64,000 nt of DNA from assembly GCA_014905635.1 (NCBI GenBank), contig JABVCE010000008.1:496001-560000 (forward strand). Direction: 5' to 3'. Made by a program: the position numbers and the translations under genes. Below are positions 53,540 to 61,438 of this stretch, piece by piece. The stretch is from Scenedesmus sp. PABB004. Taxonomy: Eukaryota. Every line of letters begins with the position of its first letter. Within the stretch, counting starts at the first letter, position 1. The notes under the pieces were generated by a model that searched no databases, had not been told where the DNA came from, and saw only the letters and a list, made by a program, of their open reading frames with translations.

Positions 53540-55495
53540 TCAGCGGCTGCGCCGGCGGTGCATGGGGAAGCCGAGCGCGTCGTCGCACTCCACGACGCTC
53601 ACGTTGTCGATGCCCCACGCGAGGTAGTAGACGGTCGTGGAGTAGCGAAAGGCGACCATGACCTTCTTGCCGAGGTAGGGCGCGAGCGGGATGTAGCTGC
53701 CGACCGACTGGAGGTTGGGCAGCGCGATGATGTCGTCGACGGTCAGCGCGGTGCCGAGGTACGCGGGGCCGGCGGTCGCGTTGAAGGGGTCGAAGAGCTG
53801 CTGCGCGAGGTCGGTGATGTTGCCCGGCGGCACGAGCGCGTCGTAGTCGTACAGGTCGACGCGCGCGGCATGGAGCGTGATGTTGGAGGCGTTGGCGTTG
53901 ATCGACATCGTGTCGGGCACGAGCCAGTACTCAAAGCCGTTGTCCATGTACCTGCGGACGTGCGGTGACGGCGCGGCGGCGTGGGCAGCGAGCGGCGCAG
54001 AGCCGCACGCTGCTGGGCGCGGCGGCGCTGGGCGTGGCACGGCGGTCGCTGAGACCCCGGCGCGCGCGCTGTGCGCTGTGCGCGGTCACCAGTCAAAGTA
54101 GAGGAGCTGCTTGGTGTTGTTGACCTCGATCGCGTACTCGTTGACCAGCGCAAAACCGACGTTGCCAAAGGCCTGGCTGCGGAAGTACTTGTTGGGGTTG
54201 TCAAAGGGGTAGCTCGGCCACCCCGTCGCGCCGGGGTCGCTGCCGTTGCCGATGATGCCGCCGCCCTGCGGGGGCGCGTCGGCGCGGGAACGCGTCGGCA
54301 GTGGGGCTGGCGTGCCGCGCGCGCCGCCGCGCCGCCGCCCGCGTGGCAGCCCGCGAAGAACGCGGCCGAGGCGGCGGGCGCGGCGCACCTGGCTGCCGTA
54401 CTCCTTGACCTTGATCCAGTTCTTGATCTTGTAGTCCTCGTGCTCGTTCTGCTCAAAGTCGCCGTTGGGCAGCATCGTCGACACGCACGTGTCTGCAAGC
54501 GCGCGCTCGCGCGCGGGGGCGGCGGTCAGCCGCTCCGCGCTGGCGGCGGCGGCGACAGTGCTCGGGCACGCCGTGCGTCCCGCTGCTGCCGGCCGGCCCT
54601 CCACGTGCGCTGCTGCTGCTGCTGCTGCTTACCGTTCTTGATCCACTCCTCCATCACGGTCATCGCCGGCGGCGGGGGCGGCGGCGGCGGCGGGCTGGGC
54701 GGGCTCGGCGGCGGGCTCGGGCTGCGGCGGCGGCAGCGGTGAGCGACCGACGCACGGGGCAGCGGGTGAGCACGGCGCGGCGCGGAGCCGCCGCGGCCGC
54801 GGGCCGCGGGCCGGCCGCCCACGCGCACCTGCTCGGGGGCTCGACGGCAGCGATGGCGACCGTCGGCGCCGCCGGCTTCGCGGCCGCGGCGGCGGGCTCC
54901 GCGGGCTTCGCGGCCGCCACCGCCGGCTCCGCGGGCTTGGCGGCAGCGACGGCGGGCTCCGCGGGCTTGGTGGGGATGCTGCTGGCGAGCGCCCCCAGGC
55001 CCTTGAGCAGCTGCATGAAGGCGCCGGAACTGGAGGGGCTGGGCGCCGCGGCGGGCGCCGGCGCCTGCGCTGCTGCTGCGGCTGCGTCGGTCGCCAGGAG
55101 CGAGCGGCCCTCCCTGTGAGGTGGGGGGCGGGGCGGGCGTGCGGGGCTGTGAGAGGGGCGCGTGCGGGGGCAGCTGGGAGCTGGGCCAAGGGCTGGCGGC
55201 GCAGCGGGACGCGCAGCTGGCTGGCCCGCCGCTGCGACGCCCGCCAGCTGCCGCGCTGGTGCGCATGGACCTCTGGTAGCCTATGGGAGCTCAGATCGCG
55301 CTCGCGCGCTGGGCGCGCTGGCCTGGGCGGGGCGCCTCGGGGCGAAACAGCTTCCCGCGCGTTGGCGGCAACCGAAGCTCCCCGCGCCCCCACGCACCGC
55401 GCGGTGATGGCGGGCATCCCGCTGAACAGGACCAGCAGCGTCAGCGCCGCGCCGCAGGCGCAGCGGGCCGCCCGGCGCGGCGGGGCGCGCGCCAT
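53540..55495 (-). CDS. Secreted protein: signal peptide, Ala/Pro and Ser-Pro stalk, C-terminal beta-sandwich (cleaved-adhesin/CBM-like) domain
   Basis: ALTLLVLFSGMPAITAR|EGRSLLA, (KPAEPAVAAA)n, [21 protein letters not shown]...NW, and IPLAPYLGKKVMVAFRY...WGIDNVSV. Confidence 0.7.
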
Positions 55496-55871: not shown

Positions 55872-56584
55872 TTACTGCTTGCTGCCGGCGCCGCGGGCGC
55901 CGCCCTGGCCGCCCTCGTGGCCGGCAGCGGCGGCTGCCTCGGCATCGAACGAGTCGAGCACCGCTGCCAGCGAGCGCTTGTTCGCCCAGCTGTCCTGCCG
56001 GGGCGACAGCAGCGCCCGCGCGTGCCCACCGTCGTCGCCGGCGCCGCGCGGCAAGGATGGCGCGCCACCGCCGCCGCTGGCGGTGCGCCGGCGCGGCGCG
56101 GCGCTGGTCGAGCCGGCACTGATTGAGCCGGCGCTGCCCTCCCAGGCGGCGTCCAGGCTCGCCGCCGCGGCGTCCCCCTCCTCTGCCAGCGCCACGCTGC
56201 CGGCGCGGCTGCTGGCGGGGCTGCTGTGCCCCGACGCGGCCGCCGCGCCGTGCAGCTGCGCGGCGGACGTCACGCCCAGCCGCGACGCCTGCTGCCGCCG
56301 CCGGCGCTCCATGCTGCTGGCCTGCATCCCCTCGAGGTGCCTCGACGCAAAGCCGAGGGAGTGGGAGATGCAGGCGGCCTCCTCCTCCGCCGCCGCCATG
56401 GGGACGCCGCCGCCGGGGCTCGTCGGCCGCTGCAGCAGGCCGCCGCTGGCAGGGCTGCCCCACGCAGCGGCGGCGGCGTCCTGCTCTGCCTGCCGCCTGA
56501 AGAGCGCCTCGGCCGCCTGCTGCTCCAGCAGCCGGCGCGACGCCGCGGCGCGCGCGGCGTCGCCCCCGCCCGCGACCCACGCGC

Positions 56585-56649
<65 letters not shown>

Positions 56650-59600
56650 CCGCCGCCGCCGCCGCCGCTGCCCGCCCGCGCGGCGCTCGCGCCATCGCCG
56701 GGCCGGCCGCGCGCGTCGGGGTGCGCCCTGGCGACCGTGTGGAACACGGCCCAGTCGACCAGGGCGTGGCCGGTCGGCGAGCGCTTGGGCGGCACGACGC
56801 AGGGCGCAAAGTTGTGGCCCCACCGGATGCTCGACAGCACGCCGTACACCTTGCTGCGCATCGCGAGGTGGCTGCTGAGGTACTGCGTCGCCGACGCGAC
56901 CACCACGATCTCGGCGTCCGCGTCCTGCGCCGCGGCGGCGGCAGCGTGCGGCCCGCGGCGCCAGGGTGTGTCAGGCGCGGCCGGCCGCGGCGGGCGGCGC
57001 CCCGGCGGCGTGCCCTTGGCGCCGCAGCCGCAACCAGCGAGCCGCGCCGCAGCGCGCGGCGCGCGCCGCGCCTTGAGCATGCCATCGTGCGTGACCCAGT
57101 CGCGCAGCGGGCTGTCGGGGCCGACCTCGTGCCCGACCACCACCGGGTAGCGCAGGAGAACGTCCACGCCGCCGACGCGCGCGGGCGCGATGCCGCCGCC
57201 GCCGGGGTCGTCCGCGCACCAGAGGTGCCGCGTGAGCGGCAGCTCCTGGTGCACGTACGTCGCCTCGGCCACACCCGCGCCGCCGGGCGTCGCCGCGCCG
57301 TAGCGGTAGATGAACATCGCCACGCGCGCGCTCGCCATCTGGGAGGGGTACGCGTCGCCCACCCTGCGGCGCGCGCAGGCAGCGCACGTGGCAGCAGGGG
57401 TGTGCGTGGGCATGCGTGGGCGCGAGCGGGCGGGGGCGCAGACAGGTGCAGACTGGCAGGCGCGCCGCGAGCGGTGCGTGCGGTGTGTGCGGCGCGCGCG
57501 CGTGCGCGCGCACCTGACGGCCACAAACCAGCGTCCCGCGGGCGTGCGCGTGACGACGAGCTCGTCGGCCAGCAGCAGCGTGTTCTCGCCCAGCCGCGGC
57601 CACGGCACGCGCCGCGCACCGCCGAGCACGACCGCGCGGCTCACGCGCGCCGGCGGCATCGCCGCGAGGCTCGGCTGAGGCTCGACGTCGTGGAAGCTGC
57701 CGGGCGCGGACGGCGACGGCGCGGCAGGCGGCGCGGCGGCGGCGCGGGGTCAGTGCGGCGCCGCGCGCAGCCGCGTGCACACGTGGAAGGAAGCAGGGCC
57801 TGCGCCGGCGCGCACCGGCTGAGGTCGACGGCGTGCTGCGTGTCGCGCCCGTGCTCCGCCTGCTGGATAATGCCAACAAACACGCACCCCCTGCGCGCGG
57901 CGCCGCCCGCGGCCGGGCGCGGCGGCTCGACTCGACGCGGCTCGGCTCGACGCGCGCCGCCGCCGCCGGCGCCCGCGCGGCGCGGCGACGCGCGCGGGGC
58001 AGCTCCCCGGGGCCGGCGCGGGCGCGCCGCGCCGCGCTCACCAGTGGACCTCGCTGGGCAGGAAGGACTGCCGGGTCATGAATGTGTCGCCCAGCTCGCT
58101 GGTCCCCTCAAACGTGACGACAATCTCGGCGCCCAGAGCCTCCAGCGACTCCGCGGTGTGCCCTGCGTCGTCGTGGCGGCGCGTGAGTGTGCGCGGCGCG
58201 CGGCGCGTGGCGCGTGGCGCGTGAGCGTGCGCGGCGGCGGGTTGGGGTCGCGGCCGCCCCCGCGCCGCGCACGCGCGCGCGCGCGGGGCTCACCGTAGAG
58301 GGGCGAGCGCTCGTCGATCGTGTGCTCCACCACGACCGGCAGCAGCAGCGTGGCGTCGAGGTAGTGCAGCGGCAGCTCCTGCACCAGCACCGGCACGACC
58401 TGCGGCGCGGCAAGCGGCGGGCCGCTCGCGCGCGGGCGGGCGCGCGCGCGGCTGCGCAGTCGCCGCCGGGCGCGCACGGCGCCCGCACCTCGCCCTCCGC
58501 GGTGGTGTGGCCGCCCCACGCGTAGAGCGTGGCGCGGATGCGCGGCGCGATGGCGGTGCGCTTGCGGATGTCGGCGACGCGGAACATGCTGCGCCGGTGG
58601 TGGAGGCACCGTGGCGCGGCGCGGTGTGAGATGCGCCTGCCTCGGGCCGTGGGCCCGCCGCGGAGGCTGCCGGGGGCGGCCGCCGCCCACGCGTCGAGCC
58701 AGGCGCCGCGCGCGCGCGCGCGCGCGACGCGGCCGCGGCGCGGCCGCACTCACAACTTGAGCACGCCGTCGCGGCGCGCGATGCAGGCGCACTCGCTGAT
58801 CAGGATGGTGCGGGAGCGGCCCTTGGGGTGGCTGATCTTGGCAAAGATTATACCCTGCGCGGCGGCGGGGTCGCGGGGCAGCCGGGCGCTGTGGGCGGGC
58901 GCAGCGCGCGCCGCGCCCGCCCCGCCGCTGCGCTGCGCCCCGCCGCCGGCGGCTCACGATGAAGACGGCCTCGAGCAGCACCGCAAAGATGCACTGAATG
59001 CCCACCAGCCACGCGGGCAGCCAGCAGTCGCCGATCGCGTGCGAGCCGTAGCCTGGCGCGGCGCGGCGCGGCGGGCTCGGCCGCCGCAGAGCGCTGCGCG
59101 GCGCGCACGCGCGGCTGCTGAGCAGGGGTGGGACGGGGCGGCGGCGGCGGCGGCGGCGCACCGATGGTGTTCTGTGTCTCGATGGAGAAGAGAAAGGCTG
59201 AGAGGAAGGAGTGGAAGCCGAGGAAGCAGGTCTCATCCAGCCTGCGGGCACAAGCACACGGTGCGTTGTGTGGGCGGGCACGGGCGGCGCCGCCTGCTCA
59301 CGGCCCTCAGCGCCAGCGGGGGCGGGCGCCGGGCGCCGGCGGGGGCGTGCAGCGCTGCACTACAAAAGTCACCTCCAGATGACGTAATAGATGCATGCCC
59401 ACACGGTGAACGAGGTGATGAAGGCGGCCAGCATCGCGGCGACGACGTACTGGAACCGCGCGTGCACCGCGGTCGTGAAAAAGTCTGGGCGGCGGCGGCG
59501 GCGCGGCGGCGGCGCGTGAGCCGGAGGCGCGGCCGGCGCGGGGCGCGCGCGCCGCGCGGCGCGCGGCGCCCGGCGCGGCGGCGGCGGCGGCGCGCGCGCG

Positions 59601-59992
59601 CACACGCGCAGACACACACCTCGGCGCCAGACGTGCTTGAGGATGCGCGCCCACTCGACGCCGTGGTAGCGCACCTTGCTCTTGCCGATGTCGCGGCCGC
59701 TGCCGAGCAGGCTCGCCTTGCGCTTCGCGACGCGCTCGGCCTGGTAGAAGCCGGTGCCGCGGTCGAGCGTCCACATGGGGTTGTGCTTGATGCGGCGCAG
59801 CACGTAGCGCTGCTCCTCGGTCGACGCCGAGAGCGAGCCGGCCGCCCAGTCGGCGTGCGGGCCGTGCCCGAGCCGGCCGACCGGGATCGCGAGCGAGTCG
59901 CCGAGCAGGCTGCCGGCCAGGTCCTCGCTGCAGGCCGCCGACAGCGCCTCGGCGCTGTCGGCGGCCGGGCGCAGCCACCCCAGCCAGCGCAT
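55872..59992 (-). CDS. Inward-rectifier K+ channel (Kir/IRK) with two tandem cytoplasmic IRK_C domains, multi-exon
   Basis: DFFTTAVHARF, TM1, SFLSAFLFSIETQNTI|GYG, TM2, GIIFAKISHPKGRSRTILIS, MFRVADIRK, EHTIDERSPLY, EIVVTFEGT...RQSFLPSEVHWG...VDLSRFH, followed by a second copy of the cytoplasmic domain and a polyQ tail. Confidence 0.9.
56586..56648 (-). repeat. (CAG)21 encoding polyQ in the Kir tail
   Basis: CTG run on the + strand, in frame on the - strand. Confidence 0.92.
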
Positions 59993-60441
59993 GGCGACCG
60001 CCCGGCGGACGCCGCTGCTGCTGCCGGGCCCACGTGGCCGACCACGCGCTCGCCGTGACCAGCACGCCCCCTCAGGCGGTGTAGCTCGCGCCGGTACACA
60101 CTCGCCGTGGGCCCCTGCTCGCCGCGCGGCGGCGCAGTGTGAGCCGGCGCGCGGCGGCGGCGCTGTCGTTTGTCGCGCCGCGCCGCCTGGGCGCAGCCTG
60201 CTCGGCGCGGGCGCGACGCGGGCTGGCTGTGCACTGCCGCGGCGGATGGGCGAGCTGCAGACCGACAGGGTCGGGAGGGCTTGCTCTGCGCCCGCCCGAC
60301 TGCTGCGCTTTCGCCGCCGCCTCCCTGCCCAGCGGCGGCCCGGCGCGCCACAGCGCTGCTCCCGGCCCGCCGAGACGCGTCCCCGCCACCCACCCGAGGC
60401 GCAGCAGCAGCCGCACAGGCGCAGGGCGGCGCCGCGGCGCG

Positions 60442-61438
60442 ATGGCAGCGCCGGCGGCCGCCGGCGACGGCGCGCTGCAGGCGGAGGCCTACAAGAAGCT
60501 CTACGCCGAGGCGTACTTCGAGAACTTCATCAAAGACGGCATCCGGCCCGACGGGCGAGGGCTGTCGGTCGCGCGGCCGGTCACGGTCGGGCTCGGCGCC
60601 GTCAGCAGCGCCGACGGCTCGGCCATCGTCAAGGTGCGCCGGCGCACGGCGGCGGCGCAGGCGCCGGCGGCGGCGCGGCGGGGCGCCGGGGCAGCTCAGG
60701 CCCCTCGCGCCGGCCCGCCGCACACGCCGCCGGGCGCCTACGCAGGTCGGCGCGACCACGGTGCTGGCGGGCGTGAGGCTGGAGGTCATGCTCCCCCGCA
60801 CCGACGCGCCGGGCGCGGGGCAGCTGGTCGTGGGCGTGGACATGACGGCGCTGTCGAGCCCCGACTGGCGCCCCGGCAAGCAGCCGGGGCTGGTCGCCGC
60901 GGTGCAGCAGCGGCTGGCCGACGTGCTGCTCGGCTGCGGCGTGCTGCGCCCCGCCGCGCTCTGCATCGCGGAGGGCCAGGCGGCGTGGGTGGTCTACCTG
61001 GACCTGTATGTGCTCAACGCCGCCGGCTCCCTGCTCGACGCGTGCCTGCTCGCCGCGGTCGCCGCGCTGCGCGACACGCGCCTGCCGGCCGTGCACGTGA
61101 CTGACGAGGGCAACGTCGAGCGCGACGCGGCGTCGCCGGGCGCGCGCGGCGGGCCGCGCGCGCGCGGCGCGCCGCTGCCGCTGCGCGGCGCGCCGCTGTG
61201 CCTCAGCTGCGGCGTGTACAAGGGCGGCCAGCTCGTGGCGGACCCTGACCACGAGGAGGAGGCACTCATGGTTGCCAGCATCAGCGTCGTGCTCGACGGC
61301 GACGCGGCGCTGCTGGGCGTGTACAGCGTCGGCCCCGCGACGCACAAGCAGGTGCTGGCCGCCGCGGAGCTCGCGGCGGGGCGGCACGCCGAGCTGCTCG
61401 CGCAGCTGGAGGCGGCGGGCGGTGCGATGGAGGCCTGA
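60442..61438 (+). CDS. RRP43: Exosome complex RNase PH-like subunit RRP43 (EXOSC8), 2 exons
   Basis: AEAYKKLY...FIKDGIRPDGR...AVSSADGSAIVK|VGATTVLAGV...LCIAEGQAAWVVYLDLYVLNAAGSLLDA...LVADPDHEEE. Confidence 0.88.

Follow-up and report, generated by a model that had tools for sequence, protein, structure and literature searches.

On the minus strand between positions 59992 and 55872 of the window (the whole 64,000-nucleotide stretch of Scenedesmus sp. PABB004 DNA that was analysed), a 12-exon model encodes a Kir-family subunit of 896 residues. The product consists, in order, of an N-terminal segment, the transmembrane helix TM1, a pore loop with the TIGYG filter, TM2, two cytoplasmic domains (CTDs), D1 and D2, separated by a linker of 29 residues, and a low-complexity tail of about 290 residues. 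The limits given in the initial annotation, 55872..59992, are the same as the outer ends of the stop codon and the start codon of this model. The host is a very GC-rich green alga, and the product is nearest to Scenedesmaceae proteins. The features of the locus are as follows.

59620..59992, minus strand: exon 1, opens with the start codon (59992) and codes for the cytoplasmic N-terminal segment (aa 1-124)
59373..59484, minus strand: exon 2, region of the slide helix and the outer helix, TM1; Pfam IRK positions 24-59, 20.7 bits
59162..59241, minus strand: exon 3, pore helix and T-I-G of the filter; Pfam IRK positions 74-99, 23.4 bits
58958..59052, minus strand: exon 4, Y-G of the filter and TM2 (inner helix)
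58754..58854, minus strand: exon 5, linker from TM2 to the CTD, containing basic residues, and first D1 strands
58489..58588, minus strand: exon 6, part of D1 that carries the TAEGE motif
58294..58399, minus strand: exon 7, part of D1; Pfam IRK_C profile positions 69-89
58042..58162, minus strand: exon 8, part of D1 with the FEG / G-loop stretch; Pfam IRK_C positions 91-130, 17.4 bits
57816..57890, minus strand: exon 9, penultimate strands of D1
57514..57696, minus strand: exon 10, last D1 strand (to 57681), linker (57680-57594) and first D2 strands
57072..57363, minus strand: exon 11, middle of D2 and a lineage-specific Gly/Ala-rich loop
55872..56924, minus strand: exon 12, D2 end (to 56733), low-complexity tail and stop codon (55874-55872)
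57681..58818, minus strand: D1, cytoplasmic domain of canonical Kir type, assembled from exons 5-10 (aa 233-393)
56733..57593, minus strand: D2, second cytoplasmic domain of Kir type, diverged, assembled from exons 10-12 (aa 423-610)
56586..56648, minus strand: perfect (CAG)21 array, a polyglutamine run in the tail (period 3, 21 copies, 100% matches)
55947..55988, minus strand: short C-terminal motif of the W-x3-4-R-S/A-L type, residues 859-872 (coordinates calculated from the exon 12 start)

The splice sites of the PABB004 model were inferred from sequence and homology. AG acceptors are present in all 11 introns and GT donors in 10 of them; the boundary of exon 11 is tentative because its donor is GC rather than GT. 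By reading of the sequence, a candidate GT donor for intron 11 at CTG/GTTGCG was rejected, as it breaks the frame with the sole nearby CAG acceptor. All 12 exons have GC3 values of 0.85-1.00, and in most introns GC is flat over codon positions. Exon 1 begins at the first ATG of its open frame, has a GT donor and a GC3 of 0.99, and aligns with the N-termini of relatives; exon 2 matches their TM1 by alignment, and the spliced product aligns with relatives from end to end. The TIGYG filter is created by the splicing of exons 3 and 4 over intron 3 (59161-53), D1 starts at 58818 according to the profile match, and its end is assembled over intron 9 (57815-57697). A single open frame runs from 57749 to 55872, and within it introns 10 (57513-57364, 150 nt) and 11 (57071-56925, 147 nt) are in frame; the translations of both are missing from all 19 aligned relatives. 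Retention of either intron would still leave the frame open, and D2 would merely gain a loop.

The D1 part of the protein is that of a canonical Kir channel, with 262 bits against the profile of the relatives' D1. The PABB004 pore is recognized by Pfam IRK on two exon pieces (23.4 and 20.7 bits; cut-off 22.7), and the relatives score 37-72 bits with IRK (16 full-length or nearly full-length proteins) and 113-204 bits with IRK_C. Lone D1 exons of PABB004 stay below the IRK_C threshold (17.4 and 14.1 bits), because introns divide its coding sequence among six exons. TM1, pore loop, TM2 and the beta-sandwich CTD are common to the algal protein and Kir2.1/Kir2.2 (PDB 5KUK, 3JYC, 1U4F), which are also alike in the TIGYG filter and in an acidic residue at the aligned TM2 position; D1 bears TAEGE and FEG motifs as putative counterparts of Kir2.1 residues. 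Kir2.2 matches the relative P0003 over residues 74-342 (E 2.7e-38) and the structural model of the relative P0031 with 304 of 326 residues aligned (Z 20.6). KirBac1.1/KirBac3.1 (PDB 2WLL, 1XL4, 1P7B) have the same two-module plan, but by sequence they are much more distant from P0003 than animal Kir is (E about 1e-18) and lack the second CTD and the tail of the algal protein. The linker, D2 and the tail are likewise extra to the algal protein in comparison with Kir2.1/Kir2.2, and all 59 solved Kir sequences match the TM region and D1 only, in one stretch each, none of them having a second CTD. In the alignment with P0003, a glutamate that is also present in PABB004 sits at the position of the Kir2.2 TM2 aspartate, and Kir2.2 K183, R186, K188, K189 and R190 correspond to K, H, K, G and R in the algal sequence, so that the basic cluster is partly kept.

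The TM2 aspartate (D172/173) is presumably the 'rectification controller' of Kir channels, and we take the basic cluster between TM2 and the CTD to be their PIP2-binding region. In Kir2.1, the acidic residues D172, E224 and E299 give rise to block by Mg2+ and polyamines; the TAEGE, FEG and D-R-L-type motifs of D1 are assumed here to be the equivalents of the E224, E299 and D259 acidic rings of Kir2.1 and of the G-loop. By analogy with the Kir family, four subunits would form the pore and D1 would be the usual cytoplasmic ring, and from the TM2 glutamate and the TAEGE and FEG motifs, taken as rings of acidic residues for Mg2+ and polyamine binding, the PABB004 channel would be expected to select for K+ and to rectify inwardly.

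Downstream of D1, the second copy had been placed at about 56730-57600, and the profile gives 57593-56733; the domain is located there, but the stretch is not uniformly exonic, as it includes the two in-frame introns described above. The D1/D2 motif pairs listed at that time are all found in the translated exons. On 56721-57368 (minus strand), D2 scores 25.5 bits with Pfam IRK_C, 3 bits over the gathering score of 22.5, which bears out the proposed IRK_C similarity of the second region. Local alignment of PABB004 D1 with D2 scores 88, against a mean of 30.0 (sd 4.7, maximum 49) in 300 shuffles (z 12.5), and z values of 7.7-40 are obtained for all 13 proteins tested. The relatives' D1 profile detects PABB004 D2 at E 2e-12 (Z set to 1e6), and profile-profile comparison supports D2 as a Kir CTD (probability 99.87%, E 9e-32, 158 columns). 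Against the D2 profile, PABB004 D2 reaches 203 bits, compared with 37 plus 7 bits against that of D1. A search of solved structures with the D2 sequence alone gave no significant match, the best being the Kir2.1 CTD (E 0.17). The AF2 model of D2, with pLDDT 82-94 for the exon parts, matches Kir/KirBac CTDs (Foldseek E 2.9e-10); its best structural match is KirBac1.1 (2wll_B; Z 16.5, rmsd 2.1 over 148 residues), and the Kir2.1 CTD is matched with Z 16.4 (168 residues, 22% identity).

Every Kir or KirBac structure and mechanism so far has, to our knowledge, one cytoplasmic domain per subunit. The PABB004 protein does not follow this canonical rule, as two predicted IRK_C-type domains lie in one frame. 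At 78% GC, long ORFs are common, and the channel transcript might stop after D1, the downstream frame being a separate gene or a chance ORF; in another alga, the transcriptome ORF P0143 (386 aa) does stop at the D1 end. However, exon 10 joins the last conserved D1 strand to the linker and the first D2 strands in one frame, GC3 periodicity runs on through exons 10-12 (0.93-0.99 along the length of exon 12), and in 73 of 77 relatives a single protein contains both domains, with D2 following D1 after about 30 residues. These relatives are mostly automatic gene predictions; one is transcript-derived, as a single transcriptome contig of Flechtneria rotunda encodes the whole layout. The D1-D2 linker is conserved among the relatives, and in the P0031 model it contains an ordered helix (pLDDT about 88-90) next to a D2 with pLDDT 87-94. 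In two Pfam scans, at least two IRK_C stretches were found in 4 of 5 and 18 of 20 relatives, the former full-length and with the one IRK and two IRK_C hits that had been anticipated. Two genes, or an untranslated relic behind D1, are thus highly improbable in view of the shared exon and the relatives. The proposal of a single Kir gene with a TM-less, diverged second IRK_C domain stands, and both domains probably share one transcript, for which the evidence is the contig of the related alga Flechtneria.

The survey of algal relatives shows that the layout is not special to this locus. Named carriers belong to five classes of core Chlorophyta (Chlorophyceae, Trebouxiophyceae, Ulvophyceae, Chlorodendrophyceae and Pedinophyceae), and orthologues are present in Chlamydomonas and Volvox species. 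The same D1-linker-D2-tail layout is found in the orthologues of Tetradesmus obliquus (965 aa), Volvox carteri (XP_002947019, 709 aa) and Chlamydomonas incerta (KAG2426246, 936 aa) and in Auxenochlorella 'IRK1B' (943 aa); Scenedesmaceae orthologues are 41-47% identical to the PABB004 D2 piece. These proteins do not differ in kind from the product of the PABB004 gene, which is one more member, and the tree places them in the same family. Judged from predicted proteins, core Chlorophyta normally have this gene in its tandem-CTD form, which is already present, unremarked, in public protein databases. By its sequence features (D1, a linker of about 30 residues, and a D2 that groups with other D2s), the PABB004 gene belongs to the chlorophyte tandem-CTD Kir subfamily defined here.

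In the tree, D1 and D2 form separate clades with 100/100 support each. Within the D2 clade, PABB004 D2 groups with its counterparts from Tetradesmus and Flechtneria in a trio supported at 100/100, and PABB004 D1 is sister to the D1s of the same two algae (99/93). The two clean clades are therefore consistent with a single old duplication. A word-index search with Tetraselmis D2, aimed beyond core chlorophytes, returned just 2 of 573 candidates at E <=0.001, within a reach limited by the word index.

D2 is more diverged than D1 and lies on longer branches. Of the positions conserved at 80% or more, 14 are shared by the two domains, 38 are confined to D1 and 2 to D2; the TAEGE, FEG and G-loop stretches are among the D1-conserved positions that are not conserved in D2. 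The loss of 'FEG' seen in the alignments agrees with the earlier remark that copy 2 has lost the G-loop EG motif. In the PABB004 lineage, Gly/Ala/Gln-rich insertions are located in D2 at the region of the lost motifs. The divergence, the loss of most D1-specific conserved positions and the low-complexity insertions would all suit a functionless leftover of the duplication that is drifting to loss. Against such decay, D2 has been kept in five green-algal classes and has invariant residues of its own and a confident predicted fold, and its mean pairwise identity among 57 proteins equals that of the TM/pore region (0.43 versus 0.42; D1, 0.61); a decaying duplicate is scarcely credible on these grounds. 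The locus is instead, with little doubt, one 12-exon Kir K+ channel gene, ordered N-terminus, TM1, TIGYG, TM2, D1, linker, D2 and disordered tail, in which D2 would have arisen by one internal CTD duplication before the core Chlorophyta classes split and would have been kept under purifying selection.

The ring formed by the Kir cytoplasmic domain lengthens the pore and contains the G-loop gate. In D2, most D1-specific conserved positions are lost, including TAEGE and the FEG/G-loop stretch, and because of this loss D2 may be an accessory regulatory or assembly layer rather than a second conducting vestibule or gate, a reading whose chances appear evenly balanced. A stacked double pore would have four D2 domains as a second coaxial ring under D1, with a longer ion pathway and an extra site for blocker binding or gating. 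Solved Kir CTDs do form rings, the whole Kir CTD fold is kept by D2, and the full-length monomer model of P0031 is confident on domain placement (pTM 0.72). In addition, the D-R-L stretch is retained in D2 and a TAEGE-like motif survives in the D2 of some lineages (Chlamydomonas, Myrmecia); both are equated here, by assumption, with acidic-ring positions of Kir2.1, and since they are kept, D2 may have a residual pore-lining role. The 38 positions conserved only in D1 nevertheless weaken the double pore, as do the insertions of the PABB004 lineage in the same region of D2, and it is an unlikely arrangement.

An accessory D2 would retain the core of the fold and its own conserved patches, and four such extra domains could form a layer under or beside the D1 ring. 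This layer might serve in assembly, or in the relay of a cytosolic signal to the D1 and TM gates; the signal could be a ligand, a partner protein or tail phosphorylation. As a whole, a tandem-CTD Kir gene with D2 as an accessory, non-conducting layer is the best explanation and a rather likely one. The W-x3-4-R-S/A-L motif occurs in 25 of 58 family proteins, the PABB004 model included.

A comparable doubling is known in BK/Slo channels (RCK1-RCK2) and in the octameric gating ring of MthK, where two copies of a cytoplasmic regulatory fold give eight domains per tetramer. The likeness of the algal Kir to these channels in the number of domains is by analogy only, as RCK domains are Rossmann-like and the algal ones are Ig-like beta-sandwiches. 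No RCK family was detected in Pfam scans of the whole reading frame and of whole relatives, in which just IRK, IRK_C and generic ion-channel families were found. A more novel reading, tentative and on the doubtful side, is an eight-domain 'double-decker' Kir in which a fourfold D2 ring stacked under D1 would sense a cytosolic signal, with the C-terminal motif as phospho-switch or docking site, and would relay it to the G-loop and bundle-crossing gates; such a channel would be the Kir counterpart of BK RCK1-RCK2, invented once in the core chlorophyte ancestor.

In the literature search, which covered the main texts of openly accessible articles, no description of a Kir with two cytoplasmic domains was found. 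In the accessible portions of the relevant sources, 25 K+ channel genes are counted in Chlamydomonas with no architecture given (PMC2234077), the K+ channels of Chlorella variabilis are listed and their pore modules alone analysed (PMC3369850), green algae are left out of one survey (PMC12749960), and 'Kir-like' is used for plant KCO3 (PMC8619664). In the corresponding portions of three further sources, 'Kir' is absent (PMC3410407) and a two-CTD Kir is likewise undescribed (PMC13715775, PMC4436894).

What appears to be new here is the two-CTD Kir layout, the orthologues of the gene being already in databases as uncharacterised proteins; they are entered as hypothetical protein or 'IRK_C domain-containing', and two domains are mentioned in no source name. 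If the interpretation is true, a lineage that always has a second CTD, conserved about as well as the pore, would be a natural experiment on the uses of this fold beyond pore lining. The tandem-CTD Kir also offers a tangible starting point for work on K+ physiology in green algae, a subject that has hardly been studied. For annotation, chlorophyte gene models that stop after the first IRK_C domain are probably truncated.

The minus-strand gene at 59992-55872 encodes a Kir-family K+ channel subunit in which the canonical cytoplasmic domain that follows TM2 (D1) is succeeded, after a linker, by a second, diverged Kir cytoplasmic domain (D2). The region is extremely GC-rich (0.67-0.85 in 300-base windows), and all six frames carry long open frames. 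The gene model was obtained by joining pieces of the minus-strand three-frame translation by their coordinates, which resulted in 12 exons.

Exons of the gene model
59992-59620, minus strand, exon 1
59484-59373, minus strand, exon 2
59241-59162, minus strand, exon 3
59052-58958, minus strand, exon 4
58854-58754, minus strand, exon 5
58588-58489, minus strand, exon 6
58399-58294, minus strand, exon 7
58162-58042, minus strand, exon 8
57890-57816, minus strand, exon 9
57696-57514, minus strand, exon 10
57363-57072, minus strand, exon 11
56924-55872, minus strand, exon 12

All 11 introns end in CAG, and 10 of the 11 begin with GT (intron 11 begins with GC). The predicted product has 896 residues; 59992 is the first ATG in its frame and the stop codon lies at 55874-55872, so that the limits set in the initial annotation coincide exactly with the start and stop codons of the model. 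The Kir pieces named there are likewise visible in the three-frame reading. GC at the third codon position is 0.85-1.00 in all 12 exons (second position, 0.26-0.63), whereas GC is nearly flat over the three positions in most introns (the largest departure is in intron 10, 0.84/0.68/0.88), a contrast that favours the exon assignments as well as a coding 3′ half.

D1 and D2 are joined in one frame. The selectivity filter TIGYG arises from the exon 3-exon 4 splice and the final conserved strand of D1 from the exon 9-exon 10 splice, after which exon 10 stays open across a 29-residue linker and goes on to encode the initial strands of D2. Exon 10 therefore spans the end of D1 and the start of D2, which bears out the earlier proposal that the spliced Kir frame runs on into a second copy. 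From 57749 down to 55872 there is a single open frame of 625 codons. Introns 10 (57364-57513, minus strand, 150 nt) and 11 (56925-57071, minus strand, 147 nt) are in frame and free of stops, and thus D2 is in frame with the channel, spliced or not. Their translations are insertions absent in 19/19 aligned relatives, and retention of either would add only about 50 residues in D2 loops.

Several lines of evidence identify D2 as a Kir cytoplasmic domain, as had been proposed from its similarity to IRK_C. Pfam IRK_C matches it with 25.5 bits (E 1.2e-5; cut-off 22.5; window:56721-57368:-), with 24.3 bits on a longer D2 piece and with 22.2 bits in the first scan of raw ORFs. The D1-D2 alignment score in the window's product is 88, against a mean of 30.0 (sd 4.7, maximum 49) in 300 shuffles (z 12.5), and the same test in 12 relatives gave z values of 7.7 to 40. 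All 15 D2s tested are recovered by a D1 profile made from 14 relatives, the window's D2 at E 2e-12 (database size nominally set at one million); searching the other way, a D2 profile recovers 15/15 D1s, and the two profiles align to each other over 158 columns (99.87% probability, E 9e-32). A language-model look-up with the D2 of one relative returned IRK_C clusters (0.92). By sequence alone, D2 matches no solved structure significantly (best E 0.17). An AlphaFold2 model of window:56721-57698:-, based on an alignment of 19 relatives, has a mean pLDDT of 71.5 and a pTM of 0.69; pLDDT is 82-94 in the exon-encoded strands and mostly under about 55 in the translations of the two introns. In a Foldseek search of the PDB with this model, Kir and KirBac chains occupy the listed top ranks throughout (best 7mit_A, E 2.9e-10), and VIA-align matches it over the whole domain to KirBac1.1 (Z 16.5, rmsd 2.1, 148 residues) and to the Kir2.1 cytoplasmic domain (Z 16.4, 168 residues, 22% identity).

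The layout is shared by many green algal proteins. When longer proteins were queried with the D2 piece by word index, five emerged: Tetradesmus obliquus contributed two (965 and 612 aa), and the others are a Flechtneria rotunda protein (Scenedesmaceae; 872 aa, the ORF of a transcriptome contig), a Chlamydomonas schloesseri protein (946 aa) and a fragment of 468 aa. Pfam places IRK and IRK_C in two stretches in four of these. The Flechtneria contig is direct evidence that both domains are encoded by one transcript of a related alga. Two further records hold a whole ORF on a contig barely longer than it (608 aa in 1878 bases; 829 aa in 2682 bases), as would fit intron-free transcripts. An exhaustive phmmer search of 1.84 billion representatives with the D2 piece yielded only 67 proteins at E ≤ 0.001; IRK_C was present in all 20 matches scanned by Pfam, in two or more stretches in 18. 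Named sources include Volvox carteri, Chlamydomonas incerta, Apatococcus fuscideae, Myrmecia bisecta, Prototheca wickerhamii, Chlorella sp. A99 and Pedinophyceae sp. YPF-701. A search with the Myrmecia D1 found 77 proteins, all named ones being from chlorophytes, and added Ostreobium (Ulvophyceae) and Tetraselmis (Chlorodendrophyceae). With profiles of the two domains, D1 is followed about 30 residues later by D2 in 73 of the 77; the other four are three fragments and a 386-aa transcriptome ORF ending with D1. This last protein (P0143; GHRQ01016088.1) is labelled complete and stops exactly at the end of D1, and may represent a truncated contig or a short D2-less isoform in its alga. In the 1051-aa Asterochloris protein P0113, a TPR family match (PF00515) precedes the channel and D1 starts only at residue 517, which would reflect either a merged gene model or an additional fusion.

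The window's gene is thus one more member of a tandem-domain Kir subfamily, apparently the usual Kir type in core chlorophytes. Public databases already list proteins of this subfamily under the labels hypothetical or 'IRK_C domain-containing'; the sequences themselves were thus available, and the two-domain architecture appears to have gone unremarked. A Kir carrying two cytoplasmic domains was not described in the portions of the full-text literature searched, and a 2025 survey of channel repertoires states that green algae were excluded from it (PMC12749960).

In an unrooted maximum-likelihood tree of 15 D1s and 15 D2s, built without a single-domain outgroup, a branch supported at 100/100 divides the two sets. 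The window's D1 groups as sister to those of Tetradesmus and Flechtneria (99/93), and the three D2s form a 100/100 group that is unresolved inside. This topology is consistent with a single duplication predating the divergence of these lineages. Mean pairwise identity among 57 proteins is 0.61 for D1, 0.43 for D2, 0.43 for the linker and 0.42 for the TM/pore region, and the constraint on D2 is therefore comparable to that on the pore.

The Kir part resembles known channels closely. Kir2.2 matches the relative P0003 at E 2.7e-38 over P0003 residues 74-342, and the matches of all 59 solved sequences found with this protein are confined to that part, each as a single stretch. The residue aligned with the TM2 aspartate of Kir2.2 is glutamate in P0003, and the basic cluster after TM2 aligns as K, H, K, G, R. 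For the 608-aa relative P0031, a full-length model (57-sequence alignment) has a mean pLDDT of 82.4 and a pTM of 0.72, with D2 at 87-94 and a linker helix at residues 380-389. Kir2.2 aligns with it over 304/326 residues (Z 20.6; model residues 69-391, chain residues 41-363), so the linker helix falls inside the region paired with the C-terminal end of the Kir2.2 chain. Of the 50 structural matches listed, 45 have ranges that stop short of D2 or barely enter it (model residue ≤413); five reach 427 or 535, and none has more than 313 aligned residues, which is not enough to include D2 in addition.

By analogy with the Kir family, the protein would form a tetramer with a K+-selective pore and a D1 ring, subject to Mg2+/polyamine block. 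In a single-profile alignment, 14 positions keep the same residue in D1 and D2, 38 are conserved in D1 only and 2 in D2 only. The D1-only stretches include RRDG..LKFMF, TAEGE.IPV and TFE...E.G..FM, the latter two of which would correspond to the E224 / E299 acidic rings and the G-loop (Kir2.1 numbering). Because of this pattern of lost and kept positions, D2 has, in our estimate, about an even chance of forming, as four additional beta-sandwiches off the ion path, an accessory layer for assembly or regulation. The same pattern weighs against a coaxial second ring forming part of the ion pathway, which we regard as rather unlikely; in favour of such a ring are the intact D2 fold, the confident placement of the domains in the monomer model of P0031, and the traces of D-R-L and TAEGE-like motifs that some D2s retain. 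If D2 is an accessory layer, the C-terminal tail could be an input to it.

The tail of the window's product contains a polyglutamine run encoded by a (CAG)21 array (56586-56648; period 3, 100% matches), and relatives likewise have Gln-rich tails, as well as Gln-rich insertions within D2. At 55947-55988 (minus strand; model residues 859-872), close to the C-terminus, is a short motif of Trp, three or four residues, Arg-Ser/Ala-Leu and then hydrophobics. It occurs in 25/58 family proteins (Chlorophyceae, Trebouxiophyceae, Tetraselmis), within tails that are otherwise unalignable, and may serve for phosphorylation or docking. Truncated gene models may account for many of the proteins that lack it.

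Downstream, a non-repetitive, protein-like ORF piece (54086-54628, minus strand) matches no Pfam family at E ≤ 0.01. The gene on the other side (60143-61438, plus strand) encodes an RNase PH-type protein (Pfam RNase_PH, 56.8 bits; RNase_PH_C, 31.7 bits), probably an exosome subunit; it is directed away from the channel gene, the two starts lying within about 500 bases of each other.
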